Positions 7,891 through 60,184 of a DNA stretch of 64,000 nt are shown here, piece by piece. The stretch spans positions 123,048 through 187,047 of the forward strand of contig CAWEYP010000006.1 of the NCBI GenBank assembly GCA_963813305.1. The letters run 5' to 3'. Source of the DNA: an uncultured Chloroflexia bacterium. GTDB taxonomy: Bacteria; Chloroflexota; Limnocylindria; Limnocylindrales; CSP1-4. Positions within the stretch are counted from its first letter, which is position 1, and every line of letters starts with the position of its first letter. A program made the position numbers and the translations under genes. The notes below the pieces were generated by a model. The model was not told where the DNA came from, made no database searches, and worked only from the letters and a program-made list of their open reading frames with translations.

Positions 7891-8260
7891 CTACGAGAGC
7901 AGGCCGGGCCAGGCCGCGCTGACGAGCTGGCCGATGAGCACCGAGGCGGCGTTGGCCGCCAGCGAGACGGCAATCGCCCGGCGAGCGGGGAGCCCGGGGA
8001 AGGCAACCCAGAAGAAGAGCGCCTCCGCCGCCACGGCCCAGCCCTCGGCCACGAGCAGGTACTCCCACGTCCCGATCAGCAGCAGCTGCGGTGAAGATGA
8101 ACCAGACCGCGGGGTGGCTGGCAAGGTTGGCGAAGAGCAGCAGGATGAGCAGCCGCGGCCGGCTCGGCTCGAAACGGCGCAGGAGGAACGCGGCGAGCGG
8201 GACCTCCACCAGCACGGTGAGCAGGAAGGCCCTGAACCACAGGTCGACGGGGAAGTACAC
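7891..8260 (-). pseudogene. Small polytopic membrane protein (about 125 aa, about 4 TM) interrupted by a 1-nt frameshift near 8090
   Basis: Two hydrophobic halves sit in adjacent frames (…LFANLASHPAVWFIF | QLLLIGTWEYLLVAEGWAVAAEALFFWVAFPG…). They join across one extra base in ttcaccgcagctgctg. Confidence 0.4.
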
Positions 8261-8635
8261 GCTGGCCTCGTTGCGCGTGGCGGTCTCGTCGGCGGCTCGG
8301 CGCGAACGCCGCGGCGGGAGTGCGGGCCGGGCATCGTAGCCCTTCCCGCCAAGGGTTGCCTGCCCCGGCGCCAGCCGGCAGAGCCCTTCGTCACGAACCG
8401 GGGCCGGCAGAGCCCGGGGACGGCGGGGCCGGCCCCGGAGCCCACGGTCCCGCCGGCGACGCCGCGAACGCCCGGGTTGCCGTCGCGCACCGCCGTGCAA
8501 CTGCGACGTGGCCTTGCGCCCGGGTCGGGGGTATGCTCGACGGGCACTCCTGAGCGGTGCGCCGGGCCACGCATCCGCGAAGGCCCGGATCACCGCCCGT
8601 CGGGGATGTCGCACGCCGGGGGAGGTGGACGCACG

Positions 8636-10044
8636 ATGTCGCTGCTACGGCGGGTCGAGCAGGCGCAGCACGGCACCGACAGCCAGGCGCCCGGTGCGGT
8701 CGTACCGGTCCCGCCTCCGGCCGCCGCGAAGAAGGCGCATGCGGCGCGCGAGGAGTTCCTGCACGACATCCGGCTGCGCCTCCTGGACGAGGCCAGCAAC
8801 TCCTCCGCTTCGCTGTTCTCCGCGTCCACGCCGGCGGAGGTCCACACCAGGGTGGAGGCGATCGCCGACCGGCTCATCCGCGCGAACGGGTTCGCCGTCA
8901 CGGGGGATGAGCGCAGGCGCCTGGTCGACGAGCTGGTCGGGGAGATCACGGGACTCGGGCCGCTGGAGCCGCTCCTGCGCGACGACACGATCACCGAGGT
9001 GATGGTCAACGGCCCGAACCAGGTCTACATCGAGCGGCGCGGCAAGATCCTGCGCGTCGACAGCCACTTCCTGAGCGAAGAGCACGTGCTCCGGATCATC
9101 GACCGGATCATCACCCCCCTGGAAGGCGCATCGACCAGTCCAGCCCGCGGGTCGATGCCCGCCTGCCCGACGGCTCCCGCGTCAACGCGATCATCCCGCC
9201 GCTGTCGCTCATCGGTCCGGTCATCACGATCCGGAAGTTCTCCGCCAACCCCTTCACGGTGGACGACCTGGTCGGCTTCGGGACCGCGACCCCCGAGATG
9301 TTCGAGTTCCTGCGCGTCTGCGTCGAAGGACGGCTCAACGTCTTCGTGTCGGGCGGCACCGGCTCGGGCAAGACGACCACCCTCAACGTCCTCTCCTCCT
9401 TCATCCCGAACGACGAGCGGATCATCACCATCGAGGACGCCGCCGAGCTGCAGCTCCGCCAGGAGCACGTGGTGACGCTGGAAGCCCGGCCGCAGAACCT
9501 GGAGGGCGAGGGCGAGATCACGATCCGCGACCTGCTCCGCAACTCCCTCCACATGCGGCCCGACCGGATCATCGTCGGGGAGTGCCGCGGTGGCGAGGCC
9601 CTCGACATGGTCCAGGCCATGACGGTGGGCCAGGAGGGCTCGCTGTCCACCGGGCACGCGAACAGCCCGCCGGACATGCTCCGCCGCCTCGAGACGATGG
9701 TCCTGATGGCCGGCGTGGAGCTCCCGCTGCGGTCGATCCGCGAGCAGATCGCGTCGGCCGTCGACCTCATCGTCCACACGGCCCGTCTCAAGGACGGTTC
9801 CCGCAAGGTCGTCAACATCACCGAGGTCTACGGGATGGAGGACGACGAGATCCTGATGCAGGACATCTTCGTCTTCGAGCAGACGGGCGTCGACGAGGGG
9901 AAGATCCAGGGGCTGCTCAAGCCGACCGGGATCCGGCCGACGTTCATGCCGAGGTTCGCGCAGCGCGGGATCGAGCTGCCGCTCGGGGAGTTCGGTATCC
10001 CTCCCGAGGATCCGGCGCATCCGACCCGCCCGGGGAAGGGACGC
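8636..10044 (+). CDS. cpaF: CpaF/TadA-type pilus assembly ATPase. It is frameshifted (1-nt deletion at ccccctgg-aagg, about 9121) and runs in frame into the next domain with no stop
   Basis: RBS ggaggtgga precedes ATG 8636. CpaF motifs are present ([23 protein letters not shown]; Walker [10 protein letters not shown] in ORF 9259..10434). Reinserting one G restores …[35 protein letters not shown]…. Confidence 0.75.
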
Positions 10045-10047
10045 TGG

Positions 10048-10434
10048 TTGACGGGCGTTGGGCAGCAGGCGGCCGAGGCATCCCGACCCCCGGTCGGCAC
10101 CGGCCGGGCGGTCAGGGCCGGCGGCATGATCTACATCTCCTCGATGGGGCCCGTCGATCCGAAGAGCGGCATGGTCGTCAGCAATGCGATCAAGGAGCAG
10201 GCCCGCCAGTGCCTGCACAACCTCAAGGCGAGGCTGGAGACCGAAGGGAGCTCGCTCGAGAAGGTCGTCTGGGCCAACTGGGCGTTGCGCGACCCGACGG
10301 AGTTCGAGGAGTTCAACGAGGAATGGGTGCGCTGGTTCCCCGGCGACGTCCCCATTGGTCAGGGCACCCTGATGCCTCCGCTGCAGCGCCGTGCCGGCTT
10401 CCGCATCTCGATCGGGGTGATCGCCGAGGCGTAG
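10048..10434 (+). CDS. RidA/YjgF/L-PSP family domain, in the same frame as cpaF with no intervening stop. It may be a separate gene with a TTG start at 10048, or a fusion
   Basis: C-terminal 125 aa match the Rid family ([20 protein letters not shown]...[14 protein letters not shown]). Typical CpaF proteins end about 40 aa after the GxRPxF motif, roughly near 10020. Confidence 0.5.
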
Positions 10435-10496
10435 CCGCCGACCGGCGGCGCGACCCGCTCGGGCGGGGCGGCCGTCGGCCGGCGCGGGACGCCGGG

Positions 10497-12655
10497 TCAG
10501 CGCTCAAGACGTCGGAGCAGGTCCCCGCCGTAGCGCTCGAGCAGGCTTCGAGCCGCGGCCGGCGCATGGCGCAGGTCGGCGGTCGACGCTGACCGCCGAG
10601 CCTGGGCGGCGACCACGACCGGCTTCGACGGCGTGTAGAGCCACGTGTCGAAGAAGTCGCCGAGGTCCTTGCCGGAGATCCGTTCGGCGAGCGCGATGAA
10701 CTGGTCCGTCGTCACGTTCCCGCCGGCCTGCGTCCGGGCCCATCTCCGGAGGATCGTGAAGAAGGCGTCGTCGCCGACCTCCCCGCGGAGCGCCTGCAGC
10801 GTCATCGCCCCCCGGACGTAGACCGCGAAGTCGAACTCCATGCCCGGGCCCGGGTCGCCGATCGCCAGGCTCCAGAAGGAGTCGTCGTCGGGGATGACCG
10901 CGTTCCAGAAGTCGAAGATCTCCTGGGGGGTTCCCTGCCCCTCGTGCTCGCTCCAGAGCCACTCGGCGTAGGTCGCGAAGCCCTCGTTGAGCCAGATGTC
11001 CTGCCATCGCTGGACCGTCAGGCTGTCGCCGTACCACTGGTGCGCGTTCTCGTGGACGACGACCGAATCGCCGGACCCCGGCTGCTCGAAGAAGTCCCTC
11101 GAGTAGATCGGCCGGGTCTGTGTCTCGAGCGCGAAGCCCAGCCCCTGGACGCCGTCGACGATGCCGCCGCCAACATTCCACGGGTACCGGCCGAACTGCG
11201 TCGCCAGGAAGGCGAGCATCTCCGGTTGGCGCGCGAACGAGGCCCTGGCGTTCGCCCCGATGGTGGGCGGGCCGATCGCCGCCGTCCCGACGGTCCAGTC
11301 GTTGGCGTTGCCCGGCGACCCCGCCGGCGGCCCGGTGACGCTCCAGCCGTTCATCGGGTCGGCGCCCGGCTCGAAGGAGGTGCTCCCCTCGCCGGTCGAC
11401 ACCACGATGTCGTCCACGAAGACCCCCGGCAGCTGGACCACCTCGTCGCTCGCGTACGAGATGGAGACCTCGACATTCTTGTCCGCGTAGGCCGCCAGGT
11501 CCACCGACCAGTGCTCCCAGCCGTCGCCGATGCCGGTCGCCGCGGACCAGGTGCCTCCGGCCGGCCCGGACGGGCTGCAGGTGCCGTCGCCGTTGTCGGT
11601 CTGGTAGGCGGCCAGGAAGGGGTGGATCGCCTGCCAGCCACCGAACGGGCACGAGAGCCCGGTGTCGTCGCTCGTGTGGCCGTTCTGGTCGGGCAGGGTC
11701 GTCCAGTCGTCGGCGCCCGCGGTGTGCGCCTCGACGAAGAAGAAGTCCCAGCCCGGTTCCGTGTAGCGGTTGACCCAGAACGAGAGAGTGGCCCCGGACG
11801 CCGGCACCGAGATCGTGCGGGCCAGCCGCTTGAACGACAGGTCGGCCTCGCGCGAGTAGACGAACTGGCTGCCGGTTCGCGGCGTCGCCCACGGCACGTC
11901 GAGGACCGGGTCGATCGCATCCCAGTACCGGATCCCCGCCGCGCGGTAGGCGTGGATGTCGAACTGGCCCACGTTCATCGTCGCGAGGTAGGTCGCCATC
12001 GGGTCCCGGGCGTCCCAGGTCCACGTCGTCCAGCCGCCGCGCGTGCTCTTGCCCTCGAGGATGCCGTTGGCCACGACCTCGAGGCCCGCCGGCACCGCGA
12101 TCTCGAACGTGAACGACGCCTTGTCGGCGGGATGGTCGTTGGCCGGGAACCAGCTCGCGGCGCCGTGCGGCTCACCCGCGACGATCGCGCCGTCGTCGGT
12201 GGCGATGAACCCGGACTGACCGCCGAATACCTCGAAGGTGGCCTCGGGCACGCCGTCGTAGCGCACCTCGACGACGAACTGACTGCCCTTGGCAGGCCGC
12301 GCCGCGGGGTGATCACGAGCTCCTGGCCGGAGCGGCTCCAGGCCGCGGCGCGGCCGTCGACCTTCACGGCGCGGACCTGCAGGCCGACGAGGTCGAGGTC
12401 GAAGGCGGACAGGTTCTGGGTGGCCCGTGCCGTGATTGTGGCGATGCCGCCGAGGACGTCGGTGGCCGGGTCGTAGCGCAGGTCGAGGTCGTAGTGCCGG
12501 ACGTCGTAGCCCCCGTTCCCGTCCAGGGGGTAGTAGGGATCGCCGACACCCGACGAGCCGGGCGAGTAGGGAGGGCCCGCCGCCGCGGCCGCGGCGGGCA
12601 GCAGCGCTGCCACGAGCAGGAACGAGACGATCAGCGCGATCCGGCGTCGCATCAC
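10497..12655 (-). CDS. M1-family zinc aminopeptidase (PepN-like) with signal peptide. A frameshift lies near 12307 (one C missing from a C-run)
   Basis: HEXXH-E motif (VVVHENAHQWYGDSLT ... WLNEGFATYAEW). The N-terminal signal peptide (MRRRIALIVSFLLVAALLPAAAAAA) sits in ORF 11975..12772. The two ORFs join as ...ELVITP|AARPAKGSQFVVEVRYDGVP. Confidence 0.8.
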
Positions 12656-12937
12656 GAGCCCCCCTCCCGTCGACCGGGCAGCCGACGTTTCGCGGACGAT
12701 AGCACCCGGCCGCCCCTCGTCAACCTCGCCCGAGCGGCATCGCGGGTCATCTTCGCGACATCGGGACGCCAACTTGACGCTCGATCATCCAGTGCCTCCA
12801 CTCGAAGGATGGCTGGGCCAGGCCCGGGCCGGGCGGCCCTTTCCAACCGGGCGCGGCGCCTATAGCGTTGGCGGGAGCGAACGCCCGCAGGCAGGGACCC
12901 CGCGCGCGGCGCGAAGCCGAGGAGGCCCGGACGCACG

Positions 12938-13784
12938 ATGCGCACGATTCTCGAGGTGGGGTTCGCTCGTCGTGGCACTCGCCCTGGCGGCCGGTCTCGG
13001 CGCCGCGCTGGTCGGGTCGCGCAGGTTCGCCCGCCTCGTCCGGACGGACGTGGAGGCACTGCTCGCGAAGGCGGCGACGCCGCCACCGCGCCTCGTCAGC
13101 GAGGGCATGCTCCGGAGCCTGCCCGAGCCGGTGCGTCGCTATCTCGCGTACAGCGGCATCGTCGGCCGTCCGTTCGTCGGGACCGTTCGCCTGGCGCAGG
13201 TGGGCCGCATGCAGCCGAGCCCCGGCCAGCCGTGGTTCCCGCTGCGCGCGGAGGAGCACTACTCGGTGCGACCGCCCGGGTTCGTCTGGGACGCCGCGCT
13301 CCGGCTGGGCCCGGTACCGCTCGTGCGGGCCCGGGACATGTACCGCGAGGGCGCGGGGAACATGCTCATCTCGGCGGCCGGGCTCTACTCCATCGCCGAC
13401 GTGGCGGGTCCGGAGATGGACCAGGGCGCGCTGACGCGCTACCTCAGCGAGATGGTCTGGTTCCCGACCGCCTTCCTGGGCAACAACGTCTCGTTCGAAG
13501 CCGTGGACGACCGGTCGGCCCGGGTGACGCTCACGGACCGGGGCCGGAGCGCCAGCGCGACGATGTCCTTCGACGATGACGGCAGGCTCGTCGATCTCGT
13601 GGCAGAGCGCTACCGGATCGTCGACGGCGAGCACGTCCTCGACCGGTGGTCCACTCCGGTGGACGAGTACGGTGAGCTTGCCGGCCTGCGGCTCCCGGTT
13701 CGCGGCCGGGCCGTCTGGAAGCTGGCCGACGGTGATCTCGAGTACATCGACGTCACCGTCACGGAGCTGGAGTACAACGTCTGA
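12938..13784 (+). CDS. Hypothetical membrane-anchored protein (DUF-like). A frameshift at the G-run near 12960 separates the ATG and TM helix from the main ORF
   Basis: MRTILEVG (ATG 12938) joins SLVVALALAAGLGAALVGSRRF... of ORF 12774..13784 if one G of gtgggg is removed. A single N-terminal TM helix is predicted. Confidence 0.55.
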
Positions 13785-13799
13785 GACGGCCGATGGCCG

Positions 13800-14324: not shown

Positions 14325-14344
14325 GCCGCACATGATACGGGGCT

Positions 14345-14371
14345 TGACAATACGGTGCCTAACCATATAGT
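14345..14371 (+). promoter_or_regulatory. Sigma70-like promoter candidate (TTGACA ... TATAGT) in the MarR divergent intergenic region
   Basis: cttgacaatacggtgcctaaccatatagtc. Similar TTGACAATAC-containing candidates occur at 20650-20678 and, on the reverse strand, at about 35200-35225. Confidence 0.3.
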
Positions 14372-17411: not shown

Positions 17412-20062
17412 CTACACCAGGCCGAGCTGCTGGGCGCGCAGGAGCGCCTGGGTCCGGCTGCTGGCCCCGAGCTTCGCCCGGATGTGCGCGGCATGCCACT
17501 TGGCGGTCGCGAGCGATACGACAAGCTCGTTTGCGATCGCAGCGTCGCCGGAGCCCTTCGCCATCAGGCGGAGGACTTCCAGCTCGCGCACGGTCAGCGC
17601 CTCGAGGGGCTGCCCAGACTCGTCCTGCCAGAGCGACGGACCGGCGCGGCGCCCAGTCACCGCCGCCGGTGCGGCTACCGCGGCGAGCGCGGCGGTGACC
17701 TCGTCGACGAACGCCGGCGCAGCCCTTCGCACGGCCGGCAGGAGGTGGCCGACGGGACGCCCGTCGTCGACCACGCGTCGCACGTATCCCTCGGGTGCGG
17801 CCAGCCGGATCACGGCCTCGAGCGCGCGCTGCGCGGCCGCCCGGGTGCCCGATGCCTCCGAGACTGCGGCGTCGAGGACGCCGATGGAGACGATGTCGGC
17901 GGTGTCGTGGGCGGCCGTGGCCGTGGCTCGCGCGACATCGAGGAATCTCCGGGCTTCGGCCGGCAGGCCCTGGGCGAGCCGAACCCGCGCCAGCGTGAGG
18001 TCGCGGGCGAGCCCGGCCCAACCAGGACGGCCCGGCCGGGTCGCTGCGTCGTGGGCAGCCTTGTCGGCCCAGCGGGCGGCAGCCGTGACGTCCCCTTGCA
18101 GCAAGTGCAGCCGCGCCTCGATCTCGGCAAGCCCGCCCTCGATCCCCTCCAGCCCCGCCGCGCGCGCGTCACGGCGCACGGTGCCGACGGCATCGAGCGC
18201 GCTCTCCGGCGACCCGGTCGCCTGGCGGGCGAGGGCGAGGTAGGAGACGGCCGTCGTCAACAACGCCCGACCGAACCCGAAGGTGCCGGCGGCCGCCCAG
18301 GCTCGCTCGAGCGCGTCGATGGCCTCGGCGAGGTCGTTCGCCTCGTACCGCACGATGCCGAGCCAGTAGAGTGCGTACGGCGTTCCTCCCGCCATGTGGC
18401 TCAGCTCGGCGCGATGGTCCGCCAGGGTCTGCCGGCAGAGCGCCTCGGCGTCCCGGAGGTGGCCGGTCAGGTTGAGGACGGTGACGAGCGCGGTCGTCGC
18501 CGGGACGACGAGCGTCGACCGCGTCGAGCCTGCGTCGAGGTCCAGCGCACTCCGCGCGGTCTCGCCGGCCGAGCGCAGCTCGAGGTCGTTCAGCTGAGCC
18601 GTGGCGAGCGCCTGGAGCGCGCGAGCGCGGAGGAACCGGTCGCCGCCGATGGCCTCGACGGCGGCCCGTCCCAAGGTCGTGGCATCGGGTCGGTTCGAGA
18701 ACGCGGCGATGAGCGCGCACGCCGTGAGCAGCGGCCCCGGCGCGGTGCCATCGGGGCAGGCAGCCTCACCCTCGTCGCAGGTTCGCGCCGCGTCCTCGAC
18801 GCGGCCGACGAAGAAGCAGGCAACTGCCCGCAGGTAGACAAGCTCCGCGCTCGCGGCAACCCGGTCGCGCGGCAGGGCGTCGAGCCAGCCGAGAAGGGTC
18901 GTGAGCTCGCCCGACTCGTACGTCCGGCGCGCCTGGCGCTCCAGCAGGCGGATCGCCCGCTCGGTCGATCCGGCCGCGACCGCCTGGACGATGGCTTCCT
19001 CGAGCAGATCGGCAGCCTCGAGGTAGTCGGCCGCACGCTCACGGAGCGCGACCTGCTCGGCGGGGTCGAGAAGCGTCCGGAGGTAGTCGGCGAACAGGTG
19101 ATGGAAGCGGTACCAGCGCCGCTCGAGGTCGAGGGGGATCAGGAACAGGTTCATGCGCTCGGCGCGCTCGAGCAGGGCGGCGCTGTCCTCGCGCCCGGTC
19201 AGCTCCCGGCAGAGCCCGGCTGTGAACCGCTCGGCGACCGAGCTCCGGACCAGGAAGGTCCGAAGCTCGGGCTCGAGCCGTCCGAGGACTTCGGCTGCCA
19301 GGTAGTCGAGGACGAACCGTTGGCTGCCGCTGAACGCCTCGACGAGCGACGCGGCGGTGGGCTGGTCTCGCAGCGAGATCGCGGCGAGCTGGAGGCCCGC
19401 GATCCAGCCCTCGGTGCGCTCGACGAGCCGGCCGATGTGCTCGTCGTCGAGCGCGAGCCCCGGCGCCTCGCCCAGATAGGCCGCAGCCTCGTCCGCGGTG
19501 TACCGCAGCTCGTCGGCTCGCAGCTCGACGAGGCGGCGGTGGGCACGCAGGCGGGGAAGCGCAAACGGCGGGTCCTCGCGGGTGATGACGACGAGGTGGG
19601 CGAACGGAGGTCCCTGCTCGATGAGGACGCGCAGGAGGGCATGCACCGGTTCCGCGGTGATGACGTGGTAGTCGTCGAGGACGAGCACGAACGGGTCGTC
19701 GGTGGCCCCGATCGCGTCGATCACGATCGCGGCTGCCTCGGGGCCGGAGGCGCCCTCGAGGAGCGGGTTGGCCACGCCGGCGATTCCCGGTCGCAGCGGC
19801 TCCAGGGCGGCGACGAGGTACCTCAGGAAGCGCACCGGGTCGTTGTCTGCAGCGTCCAGCGAGAGCCAGGAGCTCGGGACGTCACGGGATGCGAGCCAGC
19901 CCGCCACGGCCACGCTCTTGCCGTAGCCGGGGGGCGCGGAGAGCAGGGTCAGGTGGGTGGCGTCGTCGAGGGCGCGGTCCAGGTGCGCGCTGAGGCGAGG
20001 ACGGTCACCGTAGACGCGCCACGCGGGGAGCGTGGAGCTTGGTGGAGATGAGCGGGGTCACG
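17412..20062 (-). CDS. LuxR-family transcriptional regulator of the large ATP-binding LAL/MalT type, frameshifted near 20020
   Basis: C-terminal LuxR HTH (LTVRELEVLRLMAKGSGDAAIANELVVSLATAKWHAAHIRAKLG). The N-terminus is STKLHAPR ... RPRLSAHLD ... LLSAPPGYGKSV (P-loop). The first approximately 12 codons from the GTG at 20062 lie in an adjacent frame. Confidence 0.75.
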
Positions 20063-21884: not shown

Positions 21885-24800
21885 CTAGCCGAGGACGACC
21901 CGGACCCGGTGCGTGGCGCCGTCGTCGGCGAGCGGGATCGCGGCGGCGCCGCCGGCCAGCGCCTGGCCGTCGAGCTCCGACGATGCCACGCCGCGACTGA
22001 CCCCGTGCGGGTTCTCCACGACGATCTCGTACCGGGCGGAGCGATAGCGGAAGTCGATCTCGTAGCTCGGCCAGGCCCGGGGGATGCAGGGATCGATGAG
22101 GAGTGTCGTTCCGCGCAGCCGGAAGCCCAGGATCCACTCGACGCCGGCCTGGTACATCCAGCCCGCCGACCCCGTGTACCAGGTCCAGCCACCGCGGCCG
22201 ACGTGCGGAGGCTCGGTGTAGACGTCGGCCGCCATGACGTACGGCTCAACCTTGTAGCGATGGACTCCGGCCCGGGTGCTGGCATGGTTGATCGGGTTCA
22301 GGATGGAGAACAGCTCGCCGGCCTTGTCGCCGTCGCCCAGGGCTGCGAAGGCGAGGACCGACCAGATAGCTCCGTGCGTGTACTGGCCGCCGTTCTCGCG
22401 AACGCCCGGCAGATACCCCTTGACGTAGCCCGGATCCATGTCCGAGTGGTCGAATGGCGGGGTGAACAGCAGCACGAGGCCGTCACCGCGTCGGACGAGG
22501 TACTCCTCGACCGCGGCCATCGCCCGCTCGGCGTGGGGAGGATTGGCGGCCCCCGACAGGACCGCCCACGACTGGGCGATCGAGTCGATCCGGCACTCGG
22601 CGTTCTGCGCGGAGCCGAGTGGGGTTCCATCGTCGAAGAACGCTCGGCGGTACCAGTCGCCGTCCCAGCCGTGGCGCTCCAGGGCCCGCCGGAGGGCCTT
22701 CATGCGGGCCCGCCAACGCTCCGCCCGAGGACGATCGCCGCGGGCCTCCGCGATCGGCGCGAAGGCCGCCAGGACGATGTGGAGGAACCAGCCCAGCCAG
22801 ACGCTTTCGCCGCGGCCCTCGGGGCCCACTCGGTTCATGCCGTCGTTCCAGTCGCCCGAGCCGATGAGTGGCAGCCCGTGGGCGCCGACCTCGAGGCTCC
22901 GGTCCAGGGCCGCCGCACAGTGGTCGAACAGCGAAGCCGACTCCGCTGAGCGTTCCGGCTGGAAGTAGGCGTCCGCCTGGTCCGGGCGCAGCGCCGGTCC
23001 GTCGAGGTAGGGCACGGTCTCGTCGAGGACCGACGTGTCGCCCGTGACGGCGAGGTAGCGCTCGACCGCGTAGGGCAGCCAGAGGCGGTCGTCCGAGATG
23101 CGGGTCCGAACGCCGCGACCTGACGGCGGATGCCACCAGTGCTGGACGTCTCCCTCGGGGAACTGGTGCGCCGCCGCCCGCAGGAGATGCTCCCGGGCGA
23201 GCTCGCGCCTCGGCGTCACCAGGGCGATGACGTCCTGCAGCTGGTCGCGGAATCCGTATGCGCCGCCGGCCTGGTAGAACGCCGTCCTCGCCCACAGCCG
23301 GCAGGCGAGCGCCTGGTAGAGGAGCCAGTGGTTGAGCATGATGTCCATCGAGCGATCGGGCGTCCGCACCTGGACGGTGCCCTGCGTGTCGTCCCAGTAG
23401 CTCGCGACCCGGCGCAGCGCTGCCTCGTGGTCGGTCGCCCGCTCCCTCCGGATGAGGTCGGCCGCCGCGGTGGCACCGTCCGCCTCCCCGAGCAGGACAA
23501 GGACCTGGGTCCGCGCTCCGTTGGCGAGCTCGAAGCTCGTCTGGAGGGCGGCGCACGGATCCATGCCGGCGCCGGCGACAGCCTGCAGCCGGGATCCGCG
23601 GTCCAGGCCGGCGGGCCGCTCCGGATCCCCGTTGCGGCCGAGGAACTCGGTCCGATCAGCCGTCCACGCCGTCTGGCGTCCGCCGAGGTCGAGGAAGGCG
23701 ACCCGGCCATCGAACTCGGTGTTCCACGGGTTGCGCACGAGGATCGCCCGGGTCTCCGGGTCGAGCGCCGTGATGATCCTGGGGGCGCTCTCCCCGCGCG
23801 ACGTGCCCAGCACCCACTCGGCATAGGCGGTCACCGACAGGCGCCGCGAGCGCCCGGACCGGTTCTCGATCGTCAGGACCGAGACCTTCACGGGCTCGTC
23901 GAGCGGCACGAACTGGACGAGGTCGAGCTGGATGCCGCCGTGGAAGTGCTCGAAGCGGCTGTACCCGGCGCCGTGACGGGCGACGTAGGTCGACTCCTCG
24001 CAGCGGGTCGGCTGGATCGTCGGACCCCACAGCTCGCCGCTGTCGTCATCGCGGACGTAGATCGCCTCGCTCACCGGATCGGTGACCGGGTCGTTGGACC
24101 ACGGGGTGAGCCGGTTCTCGCGGCTGTTGCCGGACCAGGTGTAGCCCGAGCCGGACTCGGAGACCTGGAACCCGAACGAGGCGTTGGCGATCACGTTCAG
24201 CCAGGGCGCCGGGGTTGCCTGCCCCGGGCCGAGGACGGTGACGTACTCGCGCCCACCGTCCACGAAGCCGCCGAGCCCATTGAAGAACTCGAGCTCCGGG
24301 CGCGGCGCGGCCGGCTCGCTCCCGGGCCGACTCGAGGCGGGCGGCGCTGCCGGCCGCGCGGTCCTCTCGGGGCGCTCCAGGCGGATGACCTGGTCGGCCA
24401 GACTGCCCCGGCGACTCAGCAGGACGGCCCGGGCGGCGGCCTGGAGGAGCGTGCGATCCTCGGTGGAGAGCCGCTCGCCGCGCAGGATGTGCACGCCGCC
24501 GCGGCCCGGATGGCCATCGTGGGCCAGGGTGGACTGGCTCGTCCGCACGAGGCTCTCGAGCGCATCGTGGAGGTCCTCGGCGTACGTGACGCCGTGCTCG
24601 TTGAGGATGACGAGGTCGACGTCGAGGAGCTTCAGCCGCCAGTACTCGTGCGCGCGGAGCAGCTGCCGGACGATGTCAAGGTCCTCTGCTTCGTCGATCC
24701 GGACCATGACGATCGGCAGGTCCCCGGAGATGCCGTGGGCCCACAGGCCAGCTGCTCCGCGCTCGTTGCGCGCCAGCAGGGTCGCCGCCGGCCGCAGGGA

Positions 24801-27800
24801 CGGATCGGCGTAGAGGATCCGGTTGGCCAGGCGCTGGAACAGGTGGGCTTCGTCGGCCTCGATCCCCAGGTGATGGAGCTGGACCTGGGCCTGCGTCCAG
24901 GCCAGCGTGGCCGCCCGTTCGTAGGTGGCCGAATCGCGGTACTTGTCGGCCAGGTCCAGGACCTCGTCGCGGGACTCGGCAACGACCGTCGAGAAGATCG
25001 CGTGGGCGGTCGCACCGGGGGCGAGCCTCACTCGGCACCGGAGGCTGAAGATCGGATCCAGCACCGGGCCCACCGTGTCCGAGAGCGGACGCCCGTCGAT
25101 GACCGAGGCGGGGGAGCGGACCGACCGGCCGCGGCCGAGGAAGCGAGCCCGATCCGTCTCGTACTGGATGACCCCGCCGGTCTCCCCCTCGACCACCGCG
25201 ACATGGGCGGCCCAGATCGGCTGCTCGTCCCGGGATCGCGGACGGCGGGTCGCCAGGAGGGCCCCGATCTCCGCCACGAACTCGGTCTGCACGAACAGGT
25301 TCTGGAAGGCCGGGTGAGCGACATCGGCCGCCTGGGGCGCGAGAACGATCTCCGCGTACGACGTCAGCTCGATCTCGCGTGCGCGCGAGCCGAGATTGGT
25401 CAGCGTCACGCGGCGGATCTCCGCGTCGTGCTCTGTCGACACCACGACGGTCAGGCCCGTCGCGATCGAGCCGTCGCGACGGGAGAACTCGGCGTGATCC
25501 TCGGCGTACTCGACCTCGTAGCTGTCTGCCTCGGTGCCGCTCGGCTGGTGACCGGCCGACCACACCGCGCCGGACTGCATGTCGCGCAGGAAGAGAAAGC
25601 TGCCCCACGAGTCGCGCGTCACGTCCTCGCGCCAGCGCGTCACCGCCATGTCGCGCCAGCGGCTGTAGCCGGCTCCCGCGGCTGTCACCATGACGGCATA
25701 CCGCCCGTTCGACAGGAGGTGCGTCCGCGGCGTCGTGTCGTGGGGCGAGGTGAAGCGACGAGGTACCGGCGGCACGAGGTCGCGCACGTCCGCGGCGCTC
25801 TTCACCTCCTCGGCACGCGGCCGGGCCACGAGCACGTCGCGCGGCATCCGCTCCTGGAGGAGCAGCTCCGTCGCCTCGATGATCGGGTCGGCATGGAAGC
25901 GCTCGATCATCACGCGGTCGTTGAGGACATTGCCCAGGGCCACCAGCGCCATCCCCTGGTGATGCGCCATGTAGCTCTTCACGATCGCGACGGTGGCCCC
26001 TTCGGGGAGGCGCCGAGCCGTGTAGTCGAGCGCCTCTCGAAAGCCGTATCGCCCGCTCGCTCCGGCTTTGCCCAACCGGCCGAAGTTCCGGACCGCAGCC
26101 TCGGGCTGGATCATGGCTCCGAGGGCGGTGGCGTACGGGGCCACCACGATGTCCTCGCTCAAGCCCCGCTTCAGGCCCAGGCCGGGCACGCCGAAGCTCG
26201 CGTACTGGTAGGTCTGCTCGAGGTCCCGCGCGTTGAATGCCGACTCGGACATGCCCCAGGGGACGCCGAGCTCGGCGGCGTAGCTCATCTGGCGGGCCAC
26301 GACCAGCCGGTACGTATGGTCGAGCAGGCTGAGGGCGGGAGCGCGCATCACGAGGGCCGGCATCAGGTATTCGAACATGGACCCGGACCACGAGATCAGG
26401 GCGGAGCCGCGACCGACGGGCGTCAGCGCGCGCCCAAGGCGGAACCAGTGCTCCGGGGCGACATCCCCCTTGGCGATCGCGAGGAAGCTGGCCAGGCGGG
26501 CCTCGGACGCGAGGAGGTCGTAACAGCTGGGATCGAGCGTTCCGTCACGCACCCGGAAGCCGATCGAGAAGAGCTTGCGGGTCGGGTCGAAGAGAAAGCC
26601 GAACTCCATCTCCCGGAAGAGCTGGTGCGCCTGGTCGGCGATCGCCTGGAGTCGCCGAACGAGCGTCACCGCCCCGGGCGATCCGCCGCCGTTGTCGCCG
26701 CCCGGTGGATCCGAAAGCTCCGCGATCGTCGGAAACGCGGCCGCCTGTCCCGGGGGTTGGAGCAGCACGAGGTCTCGAACATGGCTGGTCACGGCCATTC
26801 GGGCCGCCTCGGCCCACGTCACGAGCTCGCCGTCCGCGCCCGCCCCGCGTTCCGCGGTCAGGGCCGACGCAACGTCCGACAGCGTCCCGGCGTGTGCAGC
26901 GAGCTCGCCCAGCAGGGCCGCCCAGGCCGCCGGCGTCGCGGGGACAGCAGCGCTGGCCGTGGGGAGCAGGTCGAGGGCTTCGGCAAGCTGGCGCCGGGTC
27001 AGCGTCTGGCTTCGCCGATCGTCACCGATCTCGCCTGCCGCTTCGCGGGTCAGTGCGATCGCGTCACCGATCCCGGCCAGTGCGGCCTCGGCCGGAAGCG
27101 GCTGGTCGATCATCTGGCGGCAGGCGCTCGACAGCACGAGCAGGTGTCCGGCGAGATTGCCGCTGTCGACCGTCGACACGTACGCCGGCTCGAGCCGGTG
27201 CAGGTCGCGCGTGTCGTACCAGTTGTACAGGTGCCCACGGAACCGTTCGAGGCTGCCGATGGTCGCGAGCGTCGCCTCAAGGCGCTCCACCATCTCGAGC
27301 GTCCCGATCCAGCCGAGGTCGCGGGCCGTCACGGTCGCCAGGAGGTACAGCCCGATGTTCGTCGGCGAGGTGCGATGTGCGACGACCGGCAGGGGCTCGT
27401 CCTGGAAGTTGTCGGGTGGCAGGCCATGGTCCTCCGGCGAGACGAATGTCTCGAAGAACCGCCAGGTCCGGCGCGCGACCAGGCGGACCGTGTGCACGTC
27501 CGCGGCCGGTAGCTGCTCCGCCGCGGAGTCCGAGGGTGGCAGGCTGATCCATCGGGCAACGACGGGCGCGAGCAGCCACAGGATCACGAATGGCGCCGCG
27601 ATCCAGGTGGCGCCCGGCCTTGCCACGAGGACGACGGCCGCGACGACGGCCGCAAGCACGATGCCACCCGCCATCTGCCGGTAGAACCCGGCCGGGTCGA
27701 GGTCGTGGCTGGCCTTGGCCTGCGCCGCGGTCATCCACTCCAGGAGGTTCCGCCGCGTGACGAACAGCCGAACCAGGGTTCGCAGGATGGCATCGAGCAT

Positions 27801-32754: not shown

Positions 32755-35086
<2,332 letters not shown>

Positions 35087-37962: not shown

Positions 37963-39104
37963 CTAGCCGAGGACGAGCGCCGACAGGCTCAGGTCGGCAT
38001 GGGTGGGAATGCCCTGCCACCGAGACGCCCTGCTCGCCGAACGCGAGGTAGCCGATCAAGGGCATGTGGCCGACGGCGTGCTCGACCTCGGCGGGGATCT
38101 CCCTGATCCGGTCGCCGAGGGCGATGGCGCGGCCGCCGCAATGGGCGAGCACGATGGCCTTCGGCTGGTCCACGCCCTGCAGCCGCCTTGTAGACGGCGT
38201 TGCCCGCCTCGGCGATCAGCCCGTTCACGGAGGCCTCGCCCAGCTCCAGCACCATGCCGGGGCTCATGGCCGCCCCGAAGTCCATCGAGCCGTCCGCGTT
38301 GCTGTTGACCGGGTGGGCGGAGTACGTGATCCCGTCCTTGTGGAAGAGCAGCGGGTACTGGACGCTGAACGACACGAGAGCGCCGCCGCCGATCTCGGAT
38401 TCGGGCTTGGCGACCCACTCCGAGTAGACGTCCATGGCCCGACGGCCGCCGAGCTCGAACACCGTGCGCCCCGAGGCCTTGGTGACGGTGGCCTTCTTGC
38501 CGGTCGGTCGGTAGCCGTTCGTGAAGGCGTAGCCGATCGGCCCGCCGAGGGCCGCGATGGCGAAGTGGTTCTTGTAGGCGTGGCCGTTCGCGAACTGCTG
38601 GAACTTGCCGTCGGGAGAGTGGTCCGACGCCGTCCCGCCGACCACCGGCACGCCCGGGGCCACCTCGGCGATCCCTCGCAGGATCTCCTCTTCGGGTCCC
38701 ATGAAGGCGATGGTCAGCAGGGCGCTGGCCTCGCCGCCAAGCTGCTCGAGAGCCGCCCGGGCCGCCTCCTTGCCGGCCGCGAAGCCGTCGCCGTCGCCGA
38801 CGGCGGCGACGCCGACCCCGGCCGGCCGGTCGGCGATCAGCATCAGGCTGGCCGCGCCGCCTTCGCTGGTGACCCAGCCGTCGTCCTGGAACACGCCGGT
38901 GGACGACGATCCGCCCCACAGGGGCACGTCGCCCAGCAGCTCCGACACGCCGGCCACGAGGCTCTCCGTGTCGTACTGCGTCGTCGCGAACAGGATGGCC
39001 AGCGTCGGCGTGCCCTCGAGCCCGGCCTTCGCCCGCTCGACCAGCTCGGCGGCCGCCGCCTTCGCATCGGTGGACGTCGTGCTGCCAGTGCCAATTGCGC
39101 TCAT
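37963..39104 (-). CDS. FIST-domain (FIST N + FIST C) sensory protein. It appears to carry two 1-nt frameshifts near 38175 and 38015
   Basis: A strong RBS (aggagg) precedes ATG 39104. The FIST C end (…QPKAIVLAHCGGRAIALGDR…GHMPLIGYLAFGEQG) and the final …PTHADLSLSALVLG* lie in two other frames. Confidence 0.6.
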
Positions 39105-40516
39105 GAGATTGCCTCCTGGGTGACTCCCGAAGGGGACCTGTCCGGAACCGGGCAGCCGTCCCGACTGACTGATCTGGCCGAGGATCGCCGCGCCGAGCAG
39201 CGAGGACTGGTCCTGGAAGACGTACTCGAAGTCGCCGGTCCAGCGGCGCCGGGCCTCGAGCATTCCGCGGATCCTCGCCCCGCCGCCGGAGATCCCGACC
39301 CGGCGGCCGATGGGCACGAGCTCGGCGACTTCCCGGAGGTGCCCGCCGAGGTACGTCGCGTTGCCGCGGACGAGGCTGAGCAGCAGGTCCTCGCGCGTGG
39401 TCTCGAGCGTCAGGCCGCCGAAGCCGGCCGTGAGCCGCTCGAGGGAGTACCGGCTGCCGCCGAGGTACGGCACGTACTCGGGAAGCTCGGCTTCGCGGGC
39501 GTCCGGGTCCGGATCCCGAAAGAACTCGTCGAGCACGCGTGGGACGTACTCGGCGTAGAACTCGTCGTCGCCCAGCTCGCTGCAGGCGACCCGACGGAAC
39601 CAGTCCAGCGCCTCGCCGCCGGCATTGAGGACGAAGAAGGTGAGCCAGCGACCGGGGACGACGTGGCACCGGACGTTGAAGGTGGGCGAGGCGATCGGAC
39701 GGTCGGTGCAGACGTTGGCGATGTCGCACGTCCCGCTGATGATGTTGATGTCGCCGGGCTCGGTCAGGCCCCCGGACAGCGCCGCGAGCACGGCGTCGTT
39801 GCCACCGCAGAGCACCGAGCAGCCGGCGGGCAGACCGAGCTCATCGGCGACCGCGGGCAGCAGCCGACCGACCGGCTCGTGGGACTGCATGAGGGGTGGC
39901 AGCCTGTCCTCCGGGATGCCGGCCAGGTCGAGGATCTCGCGGTTCCAGGTGAGGTCGTTGCGGGCCGTGTTGTAGAGGCCGGTGATCGACGTGGTCGACG
40001 GATCGATCGCCCAGCGGCCCGTCATCCGCTTGACGAGATAGGTGTTGCAGTGGCCGAACTTCGCGGCCGCCGCCCAGACCTCCGGCTGCTCGTCCCGGAA
40101 CCAGAGGATGGACGACAGCGACGAGCCGCCCGACACGGGAAGGTTGCACGTCTCGGCCAGGAACCTCCTCTCTCCAACGATCTGGCGAATGGCGGCCGAC
40201 TGCGCATGCGAACGTCCGTCGAGGAACAGGACGGCCGGCGCGAGCGCCGTGCCGTCGGCGGCCATGGGCGTGAGCCCCGGCGTGGTGACGGACAGCGAGA
40301 CGACGCCGACCCCGGCCAGGCTGGCCGCGACCTCCGCGCAGCATTCGCGCAGCGCCTCCCACCAGGCCTCGGGCTCGATGTCCGCCTTGCCCCGGTCGTA
40401 GATGTGCGGTGCGTAGGTGCGCCGCGCCTCGCATCGCTGCTCGAGGTCGGGGCTGAAGACGCCGATCTTGAGCGCGCTCGTCCCGACGTCGATGGCCGAG
40501 GATGTCGCGCGCTCAC
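39101..40516 (-). CDS. FGGY-family carbohydrate kinase (xylulokinase/gluconokinase-like). The start and the last few codons are uncertain because of probable frameshifts
   Basis: SAIDVGTSALKIGVF ... GGNDAVLAALSGG ... ISGGGARIRGML. The N-terminal 80 codons have no in-frame start. A GTG at 40516 overlaps the upstream stop (GTGA) but is in a different frame. The C-terminus reads in frame into the FIST ATG unless a shift restores the TGA at 39101-39103. Confidence 0.6.
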
Positions 40517-41415: not shown

Positions 41416-42276
41416 CAGGTCGCCTCGCGAGTGTCCTGGCCGCGCCCGTCGGTCGGCTCGCCCGCGTCGGCCCCCAGCTCCCGGGCGATCGCTCCGGCCA
41501 CGGCGCGCACCCGTTCGCCGAAGTACGGGAGGCGATCGTGGATGCGGAAGTACGGTCCGGAGATGCTGATCGCGCCAACGGGCCGTCCGTCGGCTCCGAC
41601 GATCGCCGCCCCGACGCACGCCCCGAACGGCTCGTTCTCGCGGTCGTCGGTGGAGTAGCCGCGGAGCTGCGTCCGCCGGATCTCCTCCCGGAACGTGGCC
41701 AGGTCCAGGATCGTCCTGTCGGTCCGCGGCTGGAAGTCCATCCGAGCGTACTTCCCCTCGCGCTCCTCGTCCGGCAACGCGGCGAGCATGGCCTTGCCCA
41801 GCGAGGTCGAGTGGAGCGGCATCGTCTGGCCGACGGCGGAGACGAGCTGGATGCTGTTGTCGGCTTCCAGCTTGTCGACGTAGACGACCCGGAGGTCCTC
41901 CATGACCCCCAGGTGAACGGTCTCCCCGAGCTCGTCGCGCAGCGCCGTCAGGTGCGGTCGAGCGACGCTCCGAAGGTCGAGGCGGACGGTGGCTCGGTGG
42001 GCCAGCCACAGGATCTTGCCGGTGAGTCGATAGCGACGCGTCGTCTCGTCCTGGGTCACGTACCCGGCCTCGACGAGGGTCCGCAGGAGGCGCGTCACGG
42101 TCGCCTTGTCGAGGCCCACCCGCTGGCCGATGCGCAGAGGGCCCGAGCCCGTGCTCGTTCGCGCGCGCCAGCGCCTCCAGGACGTCGAGCCCTCGACTCA
42201 GGGTGCGGGTCACCGTCGTTTCACTCAGTGAACTCCTGGTGCGCTGATCGCACCCCATTGTAGCGTGATGCTCCAC
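41415..42276 (-). CDS. IclR-family transcriptional regulator, frameshifted near 42135
   Basis: An HTH segment (...RGLDVLEALARANEHGLGPS) in one frame is followed by GLDKATVTRLLRTLVEAGYV and an IclR effector domain in ORF 41415..42119. Confidence 0.7.
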
Positions 42277-53010: not shown

Positions 53011-53012
53011 AT

Positions 53013-53432
53013 CAGTCCAGGCACCTATCCTGGTGATCGGGCAACGGGGCGCTGCGATCGGGCAGCGGCGGTGCGAGCCCCTTGGTCGCCTCGATGATCC
53101 CCTTGAGGACATCCATAGGAACCGCCTCGGAGGTGACCGTGGCGGCGAAGCCGCGTCCCTCGGTGAGGATGGCCGGACGATCGAAGAGGACGTGGAGCCG
53201 GTCGATCAGGAGCGCGAGGTCGCGGGGACCGATCCGCAGGGTTCAGCGCTCGGTCGATCGCCGTTTCGACCGCGCACGGTACGACGGCGGCGGGGTGGCG
53301 GCGGCATTCGCAGGTCGCCTTCGTGACCAGATGGACCTCGACCGTCTTTCGCTGCGAGATCGTCGAGACGCTGGTCTCCGGAGGATCATCGAAGTCGAGT
53401 CTTCCGGGTTCCGGCTGCCCGACGCACATCAT
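53013..53432 (-). CDS. Small Cys-containing hypothetical protein (about 140 aa) with a frameshift near 53245. Its C-terminal approximately 50 codons are duplicated next to repeat copy D
   Basis: N-terminal part: MMCVGQPEPGRLDFDDPPETSVSTISQRKTVEVHLVTKATCECRRHPAAVVPCAVETAIDRA. C-terminal part, in an adjacent frame: LRIGPRDLALLIDRLHVLFDRPAILTEGRGFAATVTSEAVPMDVLKGIIEATKGLAPPLPD...DRCLD*. Confidence 0.4.
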
Positions 53433-53485
53433 CAATCGGTATCATTTCTGGGCGCAGGTCGCACGCGCGTCCCAAGCGAGGTTTC

Positions 53486-57269: not shown

Positions 57270-57505
57270 AGGGAAGCGGTGTAGGCTAGGCTTCGGGGTG
57301 CGGCTCAGGAAGCACATGCGGTTCGCGAGCACGAAACCGGCCGGGGTGTAGCGCAGTGGCAGCGCACGTGCTTTGGGAGCCGTCGGGGCCTCTGCGGCCT
57401 AGGGCCGGAGGCCCGGAGCACGAGACGCCGAGCGCCGTAGACACCGGTTATTGTGCGGTTCGCGAGCACGAAGCTGCCGGACCGGGTACCAGCTTGGCAG
57501 CGGTG
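57270..57505 (+). repeat. Copy C of the structured repeat (full length). The internal 20-mer tgcggttcgcgagcacgaa occurs twice, identically
   Basis: gcggtgtaggctagg ... gcggttcgcgagcacgaaaccggccggggtgtagcgcagtggcagcgcacgtgctttgggagccg ... ccggttattgtgcggttcgcgagcacgaagctg ... ccagcttggcagcg. Confidence 0.75.
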
Positions 57506-57598: not shown

Positions 57599-57847
57599 AT
57601 GACGCGTCGGCCGTCCCGCCGCCCCGCCGAGCGCGCCACCGACCGCGAGGTCGGCGTGGTCGCAGCGGTCGTCGTCACCGGATCGGAGAAGGCGGCCGCC
57701 CACCGACTCGGCCTGTCGCGCTCGACCGTGAAGCACCACCTTGCGAACGCCCGCTCCAAGGTGGGGGTTGCGACCACGGCGCAGCTCGTGTGGATCCTGG
57801 CACCGCGGCTGCCCGAGCCGGAGGGCGGGGCGCATTCGGACGGATAA
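57599..57847 (+). CDS. Stand-alone LuxR-type HTH protein (GerE-like, 82 aa)
   Basis: ERATDREVGVVAAVVVTGSEKAAAHRLGLSRSTVKHHLANARSKVGVATTAQLVWIL. A second, frameshifted copy lies at 59935..60184. Confidence 0.6.
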   Translation: MTRRPSRRPAERATDREVGVVAAVVVTGSEKAAAHRLGLSRSTVKHHLANARSKVGVATTAQLVWILAPRLPEPEGGAHSDG

Positions 57848-57939: not shown

Positions 57940-58444
57940 TCAGTAGATCCAGGGAATGAGGCGCGGCGTCCGGCGGCGGTACTCGGCGTACGTCGGGAAC
58001 ACCTCGCCGAGCCAGGCCTCCTCGCGGCGGGACTTGAGGTCGAAGAACAGCGCGAGCAGGACTCCGCACAGCGAGCGTCGGCCAGGACGCCATCAACAGG
58101 CCCCAGCCGATCGCGAAGAGGACGCCGCCCCCGTACATCGGATGGCGGACGAGGCCGAACGCGCCTTCCTCGATGAGCCGGCCGTCGTCCACGGGGCGCG
58201 GGAACGCCGTCAGCTGTCGTCGCAGCGCGACGACCCCGCCGGCGATGAGCGCGATCCCCCCGGCCATGAGGGCGAGGCCGGCGAGGGCTCCGATCGCGCG
58301 CACGGGGCCGGCCCAAGACGGACCCGCTATGCCCGTGGCGATGACGGCGACGAAGAGGACCGCCTGAAGAGCGACCCAGCCCTCGCCGCGAGGACCGAGG
58401 TCGGGGATGTGGATGCGCGGCGTGCGGCGCGTGGTGGCGGTCAC
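57940..58444 (-). CDS. Isoprenylcysteine carboxyl methyltransferase (ICMT)/phospholipid methyltransferase-family membrane protein. A frameshift lies near 58068
   Basis: RHPMYGGGVLFAIGWGLL motif. The C-terminus (GVLLALFFDLKSRREEAWLGEVFPTYAEYRRRTPRLIPWIY*) is reached by dropping one C in gtgcgga. The GTG start overlaps the upstream stop (GTGA). Confidence 0.65.
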
Positions 58445-58821: not shown

Positions 58822-58877
58822 CCCTCCCGTCGGCCCGACACCTCCATCGGCACCAGCTCACCGACTGCCTGCACCAT

Positions 58878-58968
58878 AACGAGCGAGCGCTCGATTTGAA
58901 AGTGCCAATCGGCTCTATTCGAACGACGGCATCTTGGTACCATTCATGTGTGAGCGCTCGCTCTTGTT
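58878..58968. promoter_or_regulatory. Two related GC-rich palindromes (AACGAGCGAGCGCTCG at 58878-93 and GAGCGCTCGCTCTTGTT at 58953-68) in the divergent TetR intergenic region. These are candidate TetR operators
   Basis: Each site is internally palindromic around GAGCG.GCGCTC. The two sites are reverse complements of each other. Confidence 0.35.
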
Positions 58969-58986
58969 ACCGATCCGGAGGGACCG

Positions 58987-59598
58987 ATGCCGCGCATCTC
59001 GGCCGAGCGTGAAGAGGCGACTCGCCGCCGGATCCTCAAGGCGGCCCGGCAGGTCTTCGTCGAGAAGGGCTTCCATCGGGCGAGCATCGACGATGTCGTC
59101 GCCGCCTGCGGGCTCTCGGTCGGGGCCATCTACACCTACTTCCCGAACAAGGACGAGCTGATCCGGGCGAGCATCCTCGACGCGAACCGCGAGGAATCCG
59201 ACGCGGTTCTGGCTGACACGCGGGCGGCCGGGTCGGTCGGCGAACGGCTCGACCGAGGGATCCGGGGCTGGTGGCGCTACACGATAGAGGCGGAAGGGGC
59301 GCCCGCGTTCCTGGCCGAGGCTTGGGGCGAAGCCTCGCGACGGCCACTGATCCGGGACCTCATGGCCAGGCGCCACGAGCGGGGGATCACGATGACCTCG
59401 ATCATGTTCCGCGAGTGCGTCGAGCGGGGCGATCTGCCCACGCGCATCGACGTCGATGCGCTCGCCCGCACGATCGGGGCGCTCACGGACGGCATGGTGC
59501 TCGAGTACGTCGTCTCCGGCGGTACGCTGCGGTTCGAGGACGCGCAGAATCGCATCCGCCTGGTGCTCGAGGCTGCCATCAGGGAGGCAGCCGCCTAG
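58987..59598 (+). CDS. TetR/AcrR-family transcriptional regulator
   Basis: N-terminal TetR HTH (RRRILKAARQVFVEKGFHRASIDDVVAACGLSVGAIYTYFPNKDEL). Confidence 0.85.
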   Translation: MPRISAEREEATRRRILKAARQVFVEKGFHRASIDDVVAACGLSVGAIYTYFPNKDELIRASILDANREESDAVLADTRAAGSVGERLDRGIRGWWRYTIEAEGAPAFLAEAWGEASRRPLIRDLMARRHERGITMTSIMFRECVERGDLPTRIDVDALARTIGALTDGMVLEYVVSGGTLRFEDAQNRIRLVLEAAIREAAA

Positions 59599-59934
59599 GA
59601 GCCTGGTGTGAAACGCGCGTTCTGACCGGCTGACGAGGGGGGCCGACGCTTGGCGACGGCTCGGAGCGGTTCCGGCAGATCGCCGGTCGGAGGCCCCCGT
59701 CCGGTCCCTGGCCCTGGCCGTTGAGCCGGACCCTGCTCACCCCCTTGGTCAGGTCCTGCTGGTCACCCAGGTTTCGCCTGAACGGCCGAGCCCGAGCACC
59801 GCGAGCCGGGCGAGGTTGACGGCGGCGGCGAGGAGCGAGAAGTCGGCGCCGACCTTGAGCCTGCCGCGGACACGCGCCCGCCTGCCGCCGTGCCGGCGCC
59901 GCACCAGGTGGGCGAGCTTGCGCGCTGGCGCTGA

Positions 59935-60184
59935 CCAGGGCGCCGGACGACGGGCAGGCGACGTTCACCGAACGTGCCACCGACCGCGAGGTCGGCGTTG
60001 TCGCAGCCGTCCTGGTCGCGGGGTCGCAGAAGGCGGCCGCCCACCGCCTCGGCCTGTCGCACTCGACCGTCAAGCGCACCTGGCGAACGCCAGGTCCAAG
60101 GTGGGAGCGGAGACGACCGCGCAGCTCGTGTGGATCCTCGCCCTGCGGCTGCCCGAGGCAGGCGACACCACCTCGGGCGACTAG
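59935..60184 (+). pseudogene. Second copy of the LuxR-type HTH solo gene, frameshifted near 60075 (…STVKR | HLANARSKVGAETTAQLVWILALRLPEAGDTTSGD*) and lacking a clear start
   Basis: Roughly 85% nucleotide identity (estimated by eye) to 57620..57847 over about 230 nt. Confidence 0.45.

Follow-up and report, generated by a model that had tools for sequence, protein, structure and literature searches.

Single-base frame breaks in a 64-kb Chloroflexia contig region are very probably assembly errors

Is a bacterium losing eleven genes from one short stretch of its genome, or is the deposited sequence wrong? The question is raised by a 64-kb stretch of DNA (hereafter the window; positions 123,048 to 187,047 of contig CAWEYP010000006.1, from an uncultured Chloroflexia bacterium), for which a preliminary description had listed one-base frame breaks in genes that include groEL, cpaF and a kinase of the FGGY family. 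We confirmed 14 single-base insertions or deletions (indels), 11 insertions and 3 deletions, in eleven of the listed genes; a break in a 'small Cys gene' (53243) was not confirmed. Sequence comparison makes it very probable that the breaks are consensus errors of the deposited assembly and not mutations of the organism, because another assembly of this species, wherever it covers a break, has the gene unbroken, and its own 1-nt indels lie at other sites. In all likelihood they are the artefact of a noisy assembly, real in the sequence and not in the organism, and ordinary as a finding.

Results

At the composition of the window (~71% G+C), spurious long open reading frames (ORFs) occur everywhere, so coding frames were assigned by a Viterbi model of codon usage, trained on the two long genes that are intact. 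Each same-strand frame switch was classed either as a junction of two genes, with a stop and then a start, or as a break within one gene, using the frame map, three-frame views, Pfam coverage before and after one-base repair, and nucleotide alignment with relatives. Same-strand +1 or -1 switches inside genes were found at, or no more than ~20 nt from, nearly every coordinate listed earlier. The switches at 2299, 3033, 13781, 15657, 16825, 17038, 21887, 40515, 41421, 46227, 47556, 51974, 58446, 60473 and 60990 were rejected as breaks, as they are ordinary gene junctions in which a stop adjoins or overlaps the next start. Pfam and homology gave support neither way for a possible N-terminal break at 44535 or for the uncalled stretches at 32.3-33.0, 43.1-43.7 and 44.9-46.0 kb.

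Two relatives were the most informative. A search seeded with the N terminus of a DUF6544 protein led to P0243 (281 aa, 97% identical) and through it to ENA ERZ25039502 contig_60208 (L083, with L084 as its extension), a same-species contig that is 97.2-98.7% identical to window positions 2948-31174. This DNA covers 5 of the 14 break sites, and the remaining nine lie to the right of 31.2 kb, beyond it. A homologue search with repaired cpaF reached ENA ERZ25039554 contig_32773 (L081), which is 90.6% identical to the window over 6.1 kb. Exact-protein searches for same-species copies of the right half of the window (cgs, Aldedh, LAL2, groES, an ECF sigma factor, a ferredoxin and an 87-aa protein) gave no match, and a contig scan with cgs returned only relatives of at most 78% identity, with flanks that match only window positions 1068-3606. 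At its left end the window has its closest syntenic relatives in metagenome-assembled genomes (MAGs) labelled as Limnocylindrales or Chloroflexia, which makes doubtful an earlier remark that likened groEL to dispensable actinobacterial groEL1 paralogues.

The comparison with the same-species contig carries most of the argument. All 64 indels that separate it from the window are exactly 1 nt long. At the five covered breaks (8090, 9120, 12288, 12952 and 20018) the sister contig always has the frame-preserving version, and it has ~53 private 1-nt indels of its own (~46 insertions and 7 deletions). Almost all of these fall within genes that the window has unbroken, and in the sister the M1 aminopeptidase, MacB/FtsX, LAL and cgs are called in pieces. 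Indel density in the sister differs by region (0.6-4.1 per kb) and rises and falls with local strain divergence (3.3-23 mismatches per kb). Between 54% and 86% of the window-sister mismatches fall at third codon positions. This enrichment indicates that the substitutions, which lie in the very genes that carry the indels, are genuine polymorphism shaped by purifying selection. As far as sequence can tell, two assemblies of one species that are each intact where the other breaks are the signature of consensus noise, and ~2 frameshifts per kb, as in the sister contig, are not possible in a living cell. Two further 1-nt differences, at 7885 and 14383, are intergenic, where the reading frame cannot assign the faulty assembly, and the true error count of the window may thus be slightly above 14. 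The sister contig also has a 2.6-kb insertion (its positions 11810-14432), absent from the window, at window 14748/14774, which includes a sigma-70 region-4 gene.

The two largest genes of the window were said earlier to be intact, and this held. The cyclic beta-1,2-glucan synthase-like gene cgs (21885..30563, minus strand; 8.7 kb, 2892 aa) and the adenylate/guanylate cyclase-AAA-TPR gene (3745..7407, plus strand; 3.7 kb, 1220 aa) are single ORFs, and neither has a window-side indel relative to the same-species contig. Five 1-nt indels were found in cgs, all of them bases added in the sister, where the gene is called in four pieces; the cyclase is 1220 aa in the sister too, and its differences amount to one compensating pair at 7332/7335.

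The five breaks covered by same-species DNA lie in five genes. In the small membrane-protein gene (~7891-8260, minus strand) site 8090 (8089..8091) is a +1 change, an extra G on the plus strand that the sister lacks; the sister's 122-aa protein reads ...VWFIFTQLLLIGTWEY..., which is exactly the repaired junction, and the homologues P0244 and P0246 are colinear. The cpaF-ridA fusion gene (8636-10434, plus strand) has lost one base at 9120 (9119..9121), the third position of a Leu codon (CTG|GGA). Here ...IITPL ends one frame and the conserved motif resumes in another; the site is the sole indel of the gene relative to L081, L082 and L083 that is not a multiple of three, and the repaired product of 599 aa matches ~600-aa homologues at 100% coverage. 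An extra break at the 3' end of cpaF, where no stop precedes the RidA domain, was rejected: the in-frame fusion of a CpaF pilus ATPase with RidA/L-PSP (~600 aa) is standard in more than 100 homologues and, on this protein comparison, is a real and widespread domain combination, not read-through.

The M1 aminopeptidase gene (10497-12652, minus strand) has a -1 change at 12288 (12287..12300), AAA to AA in gene sense, where the sister has an additional T/A. The break had been placed in a C-run at 12307, and is instead this A/T triplet shortened to a doublet. The repaired protein of 718 aa is colinear with homologues of 716-717 aa, and the deposited gene call (P0121; 584 aa, 100% identical) is truncated, starting 134 residues late. 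In the DUF6544 gene (12938-13784, plus strand) the break is likewise not where it had been placed, in a GGGG run at 12960: an extra C (+1), absent from the sister, stands between T and G in codon 6 at 12952 (12951..12953), and P0243 starts MRTILRWGSL, which is the +2 frame of the window past this site. LAL regulator 1 (17412-20061, minus strand) is broken near its N terminus at 20018 (20017..20019) by a G between C and C on the plus strand (+1), again absent from the sister; the motif TKLHAPR stands in one frame and RPRLSAHLD in another, and the AAA_16 domain starts upstream of any in-frame start codon.

Six more breaks were located by alignment with L081, which carries an intact Aldedh-FIST-FGGY-DHDPS-IclR cluster with 4-nt gene overlaps. 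Over the coding part of the cluster the window has six 1-nt extra bases (42131, 40510, 40498, 39128, 38180 and 38015), and the two sequences differ there by only one further indel, a 3-mer that keeps the frame. The IclR regulator gene (41415-42258, minus strand) is interrupted in its helix-turn-helix (HTH) region at 42131 (42130..42132) by an A between C and T in gene sense (+1; a single-base gap in L081), and its frames read ...EHGLGP | LRIGQRVGLDKATVTRLL. The FGGY kinase gene (39101-40516, minus strand) has three breaks. Two are +1 changes in codons 3 and 7, at 40498 (C) and 40510 (G) in gene sense (40497..40511), both single-base gaps in L081, where the start reads GTG AGC CGC GAC ATC CTG GCC..., giving MSRDILAVDVGTS; this GTG overlaps the DHDPS stop (GTGA). 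The third is a +1 change in the last ~10 codons at 39128 (39120..39135), also a single-base gap in L081. As assembled, the kinase runs on into the FIST ATG; the L081 kinase ends ...GQVSSRVTQEAVT* with a 4-nt ATGA overlap, and this matches the other frame of the window, ...GVTQEAIS*. The alignment thus bears out the earlier placing of breaks in the start region and possibly in the last few codons of this gene.

The FIST gene (37989-39104, minus strand) has two breaks, both single-base gaps in L081. Near the 3' end an A stands between C and G in gene sense at 38015 (38014..38016; +1), and at 38180 (38179..38181; +1) the frame switch is directly visible, with ambiguous placement within GGCTGCAGG. 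The repaired length of 379 aa equals that of the L081 orthologue. Gene order around the cluster also differs: cpaF adjoins Aldedh-FIST-FGGY in L081, and the window has 26 kb between them (10.4-36.3 kb, with M1, LAL, cgs, GGDEF and groESL).

The last three breaks were placed by domain or paralogue continuity. groEL (33015-34638, minus strand) has a +1 change at 33297 (33295..33299), within RRALEAP|LRQIADNAG, with the base not assigned; the repaired protein aligns over 1-540 with solved GroEL chains, continuously through the site. The PEMT/ICMT-family methyltransferase gene (57940-58444, minus strand) has a +1 change at 58070 (58066..58073), where the frame switch is again directly visible (...SWPTLA | GVLLALFFDLKSRREE). 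The second copy of a LuxR-type HTH gene (~59925-60184, plus strand) has a -1 change in the recognition helix at 60075 (60074..60078), a single-base gap relative to the intact paralogue at 57599-57817, and its frames read ...LSHSTVK | HLANARSKVG.

At each break, one-base repair restores a full-length conserved protein, as judged by Pfam coverage and by colinearity with homologues and PDB chains. Coverage of the profile hidden Markov model (HMM) rises from 65-283 to 3-282 for T2SSE in cpaF-ridA, from 122-186 to 4-186 for Peptidase_M1_N and from 1-411 to 1-487 for Cpn60 in groEL; after repair, FIST_C (1-130/131), HTH_IclR (1-52/52), PEMT (4-103/105) and GerE (4-54) all extend across the junction. 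The homologues found were all full length (~600 aa for cpaF-ridA, ~716 aa for M1 and 281 aa for DUF6544). Orthologues in relatives, to which the preliminary description had looked for a check, are thus intact at six sites in L081 and at five in L083.

Origin of the breaks

If the breaks are consensus errors, this metagenome-derived sequence would have ~0.2 one-base errors per kb, most of them bases wrongly inserted, that fall essentially at random relative to sequence context. Each error would shift the frame of a functional gene, so that gene callers would give truncated or split proteins. The data behind it are most likely Nanopore reads assembled with Flye and lightly polished, at modest coverage and/or with co-occurring strains, because the sister contigs have Flye-style names (contig_N) and published descriptions of such data agree. 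The ENA analysis accessions of these contigs also look consecutive. The varying indel density would fit a consensus that suffers where coverage is low or where strains present together diverge. Frameshifted gene calls are a known consequence of indels in Nanopore consensus sequences, and polishing is needed for bins with less than ~40x (PMC9262707). In one large soil MAG project, the assemblies placed in ENA were made with Flye from Nanopore reads only and polished once with Medaka (PMC12313526).

The window resembles such Nanopore/Flye/Medaka-type assemblies in its isolated 1-nt indels in conserved genes, its truncated deposited calls (P0121), the different errors in independent assemblies of one species, the region-varying density and the Flye-style names of the sister contigs. 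The published emphasis is on homopolymers, whereas the errors here are mostly non-templated insertions outside runs and the platform is our deduction. The resulting frameshifted and truncated gene calls are the problem that IDEEL-type tests measure (PMC9262707). The earlier attribution to uncorrected indel errors of long-read or 454/Ion-type sequencing accordingly survives as far as error of a long-read type is concerned, given the sister assembly; its reasoning from G/C runs does not, and a 454/Ion mechanism is disfavoured.

Several points weigh against consensus error as the explanation. The support comes from comparison of assemblies and homologues, with no site proven wrong at read level, and at 33297, 58070 and 60075 it comes from continuity of a domain or with a paralogue, in place of DNA from the same species or a close relative. 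Nanopore data are usually noted for homopolymer errors, and the errors here are of another type. We found no link from ERZ25039502, ERZ25039554 or the source contig to a named project or platform, nor any in the text and supplements of the Microflora Danica paper. The six breaks in one 4.1-kb operon show slightly more clustering than chance would give (P ~0.017), and the second LuxR copy also lacks a start codon, so that a genuinely decaying duplicate is possible there. The clustering is marginal (six of 14-15 sites within ~4.2 kb), as is the lack of any site in the two largest genes (P ~0.02-0.04), and the heterogeneity is mild; of the non-uniform distribution proposed earlier, regional variation in error density remains plausible (0.6-4.1 indels per kb in the sister), and in the window itself the effect is only marginal.

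Alternative explanations

The alternative that keeps most weight, though we hold it to be unlikely, is a mixture in which most breaks are errors and one or two reflect real decay, namely in LuxR copy 2 or in the family of the small Cys gene, as a truncated inserted element. LuxR copy 2 (59859-60073, plus strand) has no ATG, GTG or TTG in its upstream frame, and the paralogue at 57.6 kb does start with ATG (MTRRPSRRPAERATDRE...); the lack of a start in copy 2 may reflect either a genuinely decaying duplicate or, just as well, one more 1-nt error upstream that has escaped recognition. The small Cys gene (53012..53441, minus strand), whose supposed frameshift at 53243 was not confirmed, is recognisable only in its 3' part (53012-53242), which lacks a canonical start. 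This part belongs to a family with 52 matches that include stand-alone proteins of 69-94 aa starting at the supposed junction, and the supposed 5' half overlaps the conserved region upstream of LAL2. A close relative (L087, 97% identical from 53376 rightwards) loses homology at 53376, has unrelated sequence beyond and lacks the gene. A paralogue in the window at 62.7 kb was tried as a check on the junction and set aside, as it spans the 3' half only; it is itself degenerate. The gene is thus probably not a frameshift at all, and it looks like part of an inserted module without a canonical start codon. Same-species comparison reaches neither LuxR copy 2 nor this module.

Miscalled homopolymer lengths, as in 454, Ion Torrent or early Nanopore chemistry, would also be errors, of a kind that the preliminary description implied when it placed the breaks mostly at short G/C homopolymers. 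That placing fails, and the explanation is improbable. The changed base is assignable at 9 of the 14 sites. Three of these nine are short-run changes of the expected sort (8090, G to GG; 9120, GGG to GG; 12288, AAA to AA), and the other six are isolated bases (42131, 38015, 40498, 12952, 40510 and 20018), among them an A between C and G (38015), a C between T and G (40498 and 12952) and a G between C and C (40510 and 20018). The window has 108 runs of at least five bases; only one of the 14 sites adjoins such a run, and there the missing base lies outside it. Inserted bases in the sister contig extend a run in 15 of 46 cases, against 51% expected by chance. A G/C run near a break means nothing, because 32% of the positions in the window are no more than 3 nt from such a run of three or more. 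The error sites showed no association with palindromes or methylation motifs (P > 0.13) and no shared motif. Most of the extra bases are non-templated single bases, which disfavours flow chemistry of the 454/Ion type or the classic homopolymer mechanism.

Genuine, very recent frameshifts specific to the strain, with eleven genes being lost and, for example, the IclR-DHDPS-FGGY-FIST operon inactivated, are less probable still, and we give them very little credence. In their favour, both the deposited sequence and its gene calls (P0121) contain the indels, six breaks cluster in one operon, and the two largest genes are spared, as selection might produce. Relative to L081, however, the ratio of non-synonymous to synonymous substitution rates (dN/dS) of the broken genes (IclR 0.20, FGGY 0.19, FIST 0.16) is that of their intact neighbours (DHDPS 0.23, Aldedh 0.13) and stays low downstream of the breaks in the repaired frame; there is no relaxed selection in the broken genes (0.16-0.20, against 0.13-0.23 in the intact ones). 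Natural bacterial indel and decay spectra are deletion-biased, run-associated and of mixed sizes; all lesions here are 1 nt, insertion-biased and mostly non-templated, the opposite. We found no nonsense codons, larger deletions or insertion sequence (IS) elements, only 1-nt indels, and the other coding indels relative to relatives are multiples of three. A groES-linked groEL is among the broken genes. In the sister assembly such lesions are ten times as dense and lie at different sites, which cannot be biological.

Recent pseudogene formation is known from Mycobacterium leprae, Salmonella Typhi and Yersinia pestis, which are host-restricted or declining bacteria. The likeness is the many frameshifted genes in a short stretch; those genomes have nonsense mutations, deletions of mixed sizes, IS insertions, lesions shared between strains and relaxed dN/dS, none of which was seen in the window. 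A narrower form, in which only a minority of the indels are real and the six in the IclR-DHDPS-FGGY-FIST operon mark an environmental, Limnocylindria-like strain inactivating a sugar-acid utilisation operon amid noise, strikes us as equally remote.

Programmed ribosomal frameshifting and phase-variable contingency loci deserve next to no credence: nothing favours them beyond the existence of +1 and -1 shifts, every homologue examined stays in a single frame at the corresponding position, the break sites hold no simple-sequence repeat tracts, and several genes have two or three non-compensating shifts (three in FGGY, two in FIST). The known programmed +1 and -1 frameshifts of prfB and dnaX share with the window a single-base frame change inside a functional gene; theirs is conserved across orthologues and lies on a slippery site, whereas the orthologues of the window genes are unshifted and the sites have no common motif.

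Implications

With consensus error as the cause, the breaks matter as quality control only. About one-fifth of the genes of the window, among them groEL, the CpaF-RidA pilus ATPase and two transcription regulators, would be wrongly annotated as truncated, split or pseudogenes, and any genome decay, gene loss or novel short protein inferred from this contig or the sister assemblies would be spurious. Local G/C-run context is uninformative in a genome of 71% G+C; comparison with an independent assembly or with reads decides.

Neighbouring elements

The small ORF family to which the 3' part of the small Cys gene belongs has two copies in the window, at 53012-53242 and 62700-62853 (both minus strand), with the motif PRDLALLIDR...EGRGFAATVTSEA...TRGLA. 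They differ by synonymous or conservative substitutions and both lack a canonical start; the copy at 62700-62853 is internally degenerate, and each is followed by a 115-nt repeat. The absence of the first copy from L087 suggests that the family is a mobile or variable module.

This conserved repeat of ~115 nt occurs five times in the same orientation (43283-43400, 50112-50222, 52870-52980, 57362-57472 and 62562-62672), with 77% mean identity and many invariant columns. It matched no Rfam family, its five copies gave no covariation support, and no copy was found in the 110 loci examined. Read in minus-strand sense, the repeats closely follow small genes and precede two ECF sigma genes and two riboswitch-led genes. 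The riboswitches are c-di-GMP-II-GAG aptamers (RF03169) at 62229-62312 and 43080-43160 (both minus strand), which score 63.6 and 48.3 bits, respectively, against a gathering score of 40. Each lies 120-280 nt downstream (minus sense) of a repeat copy and upstream of a minus-strand gene, 60988-62058 in the first case and the SnoaL-like gene 42509-43192 in the second.

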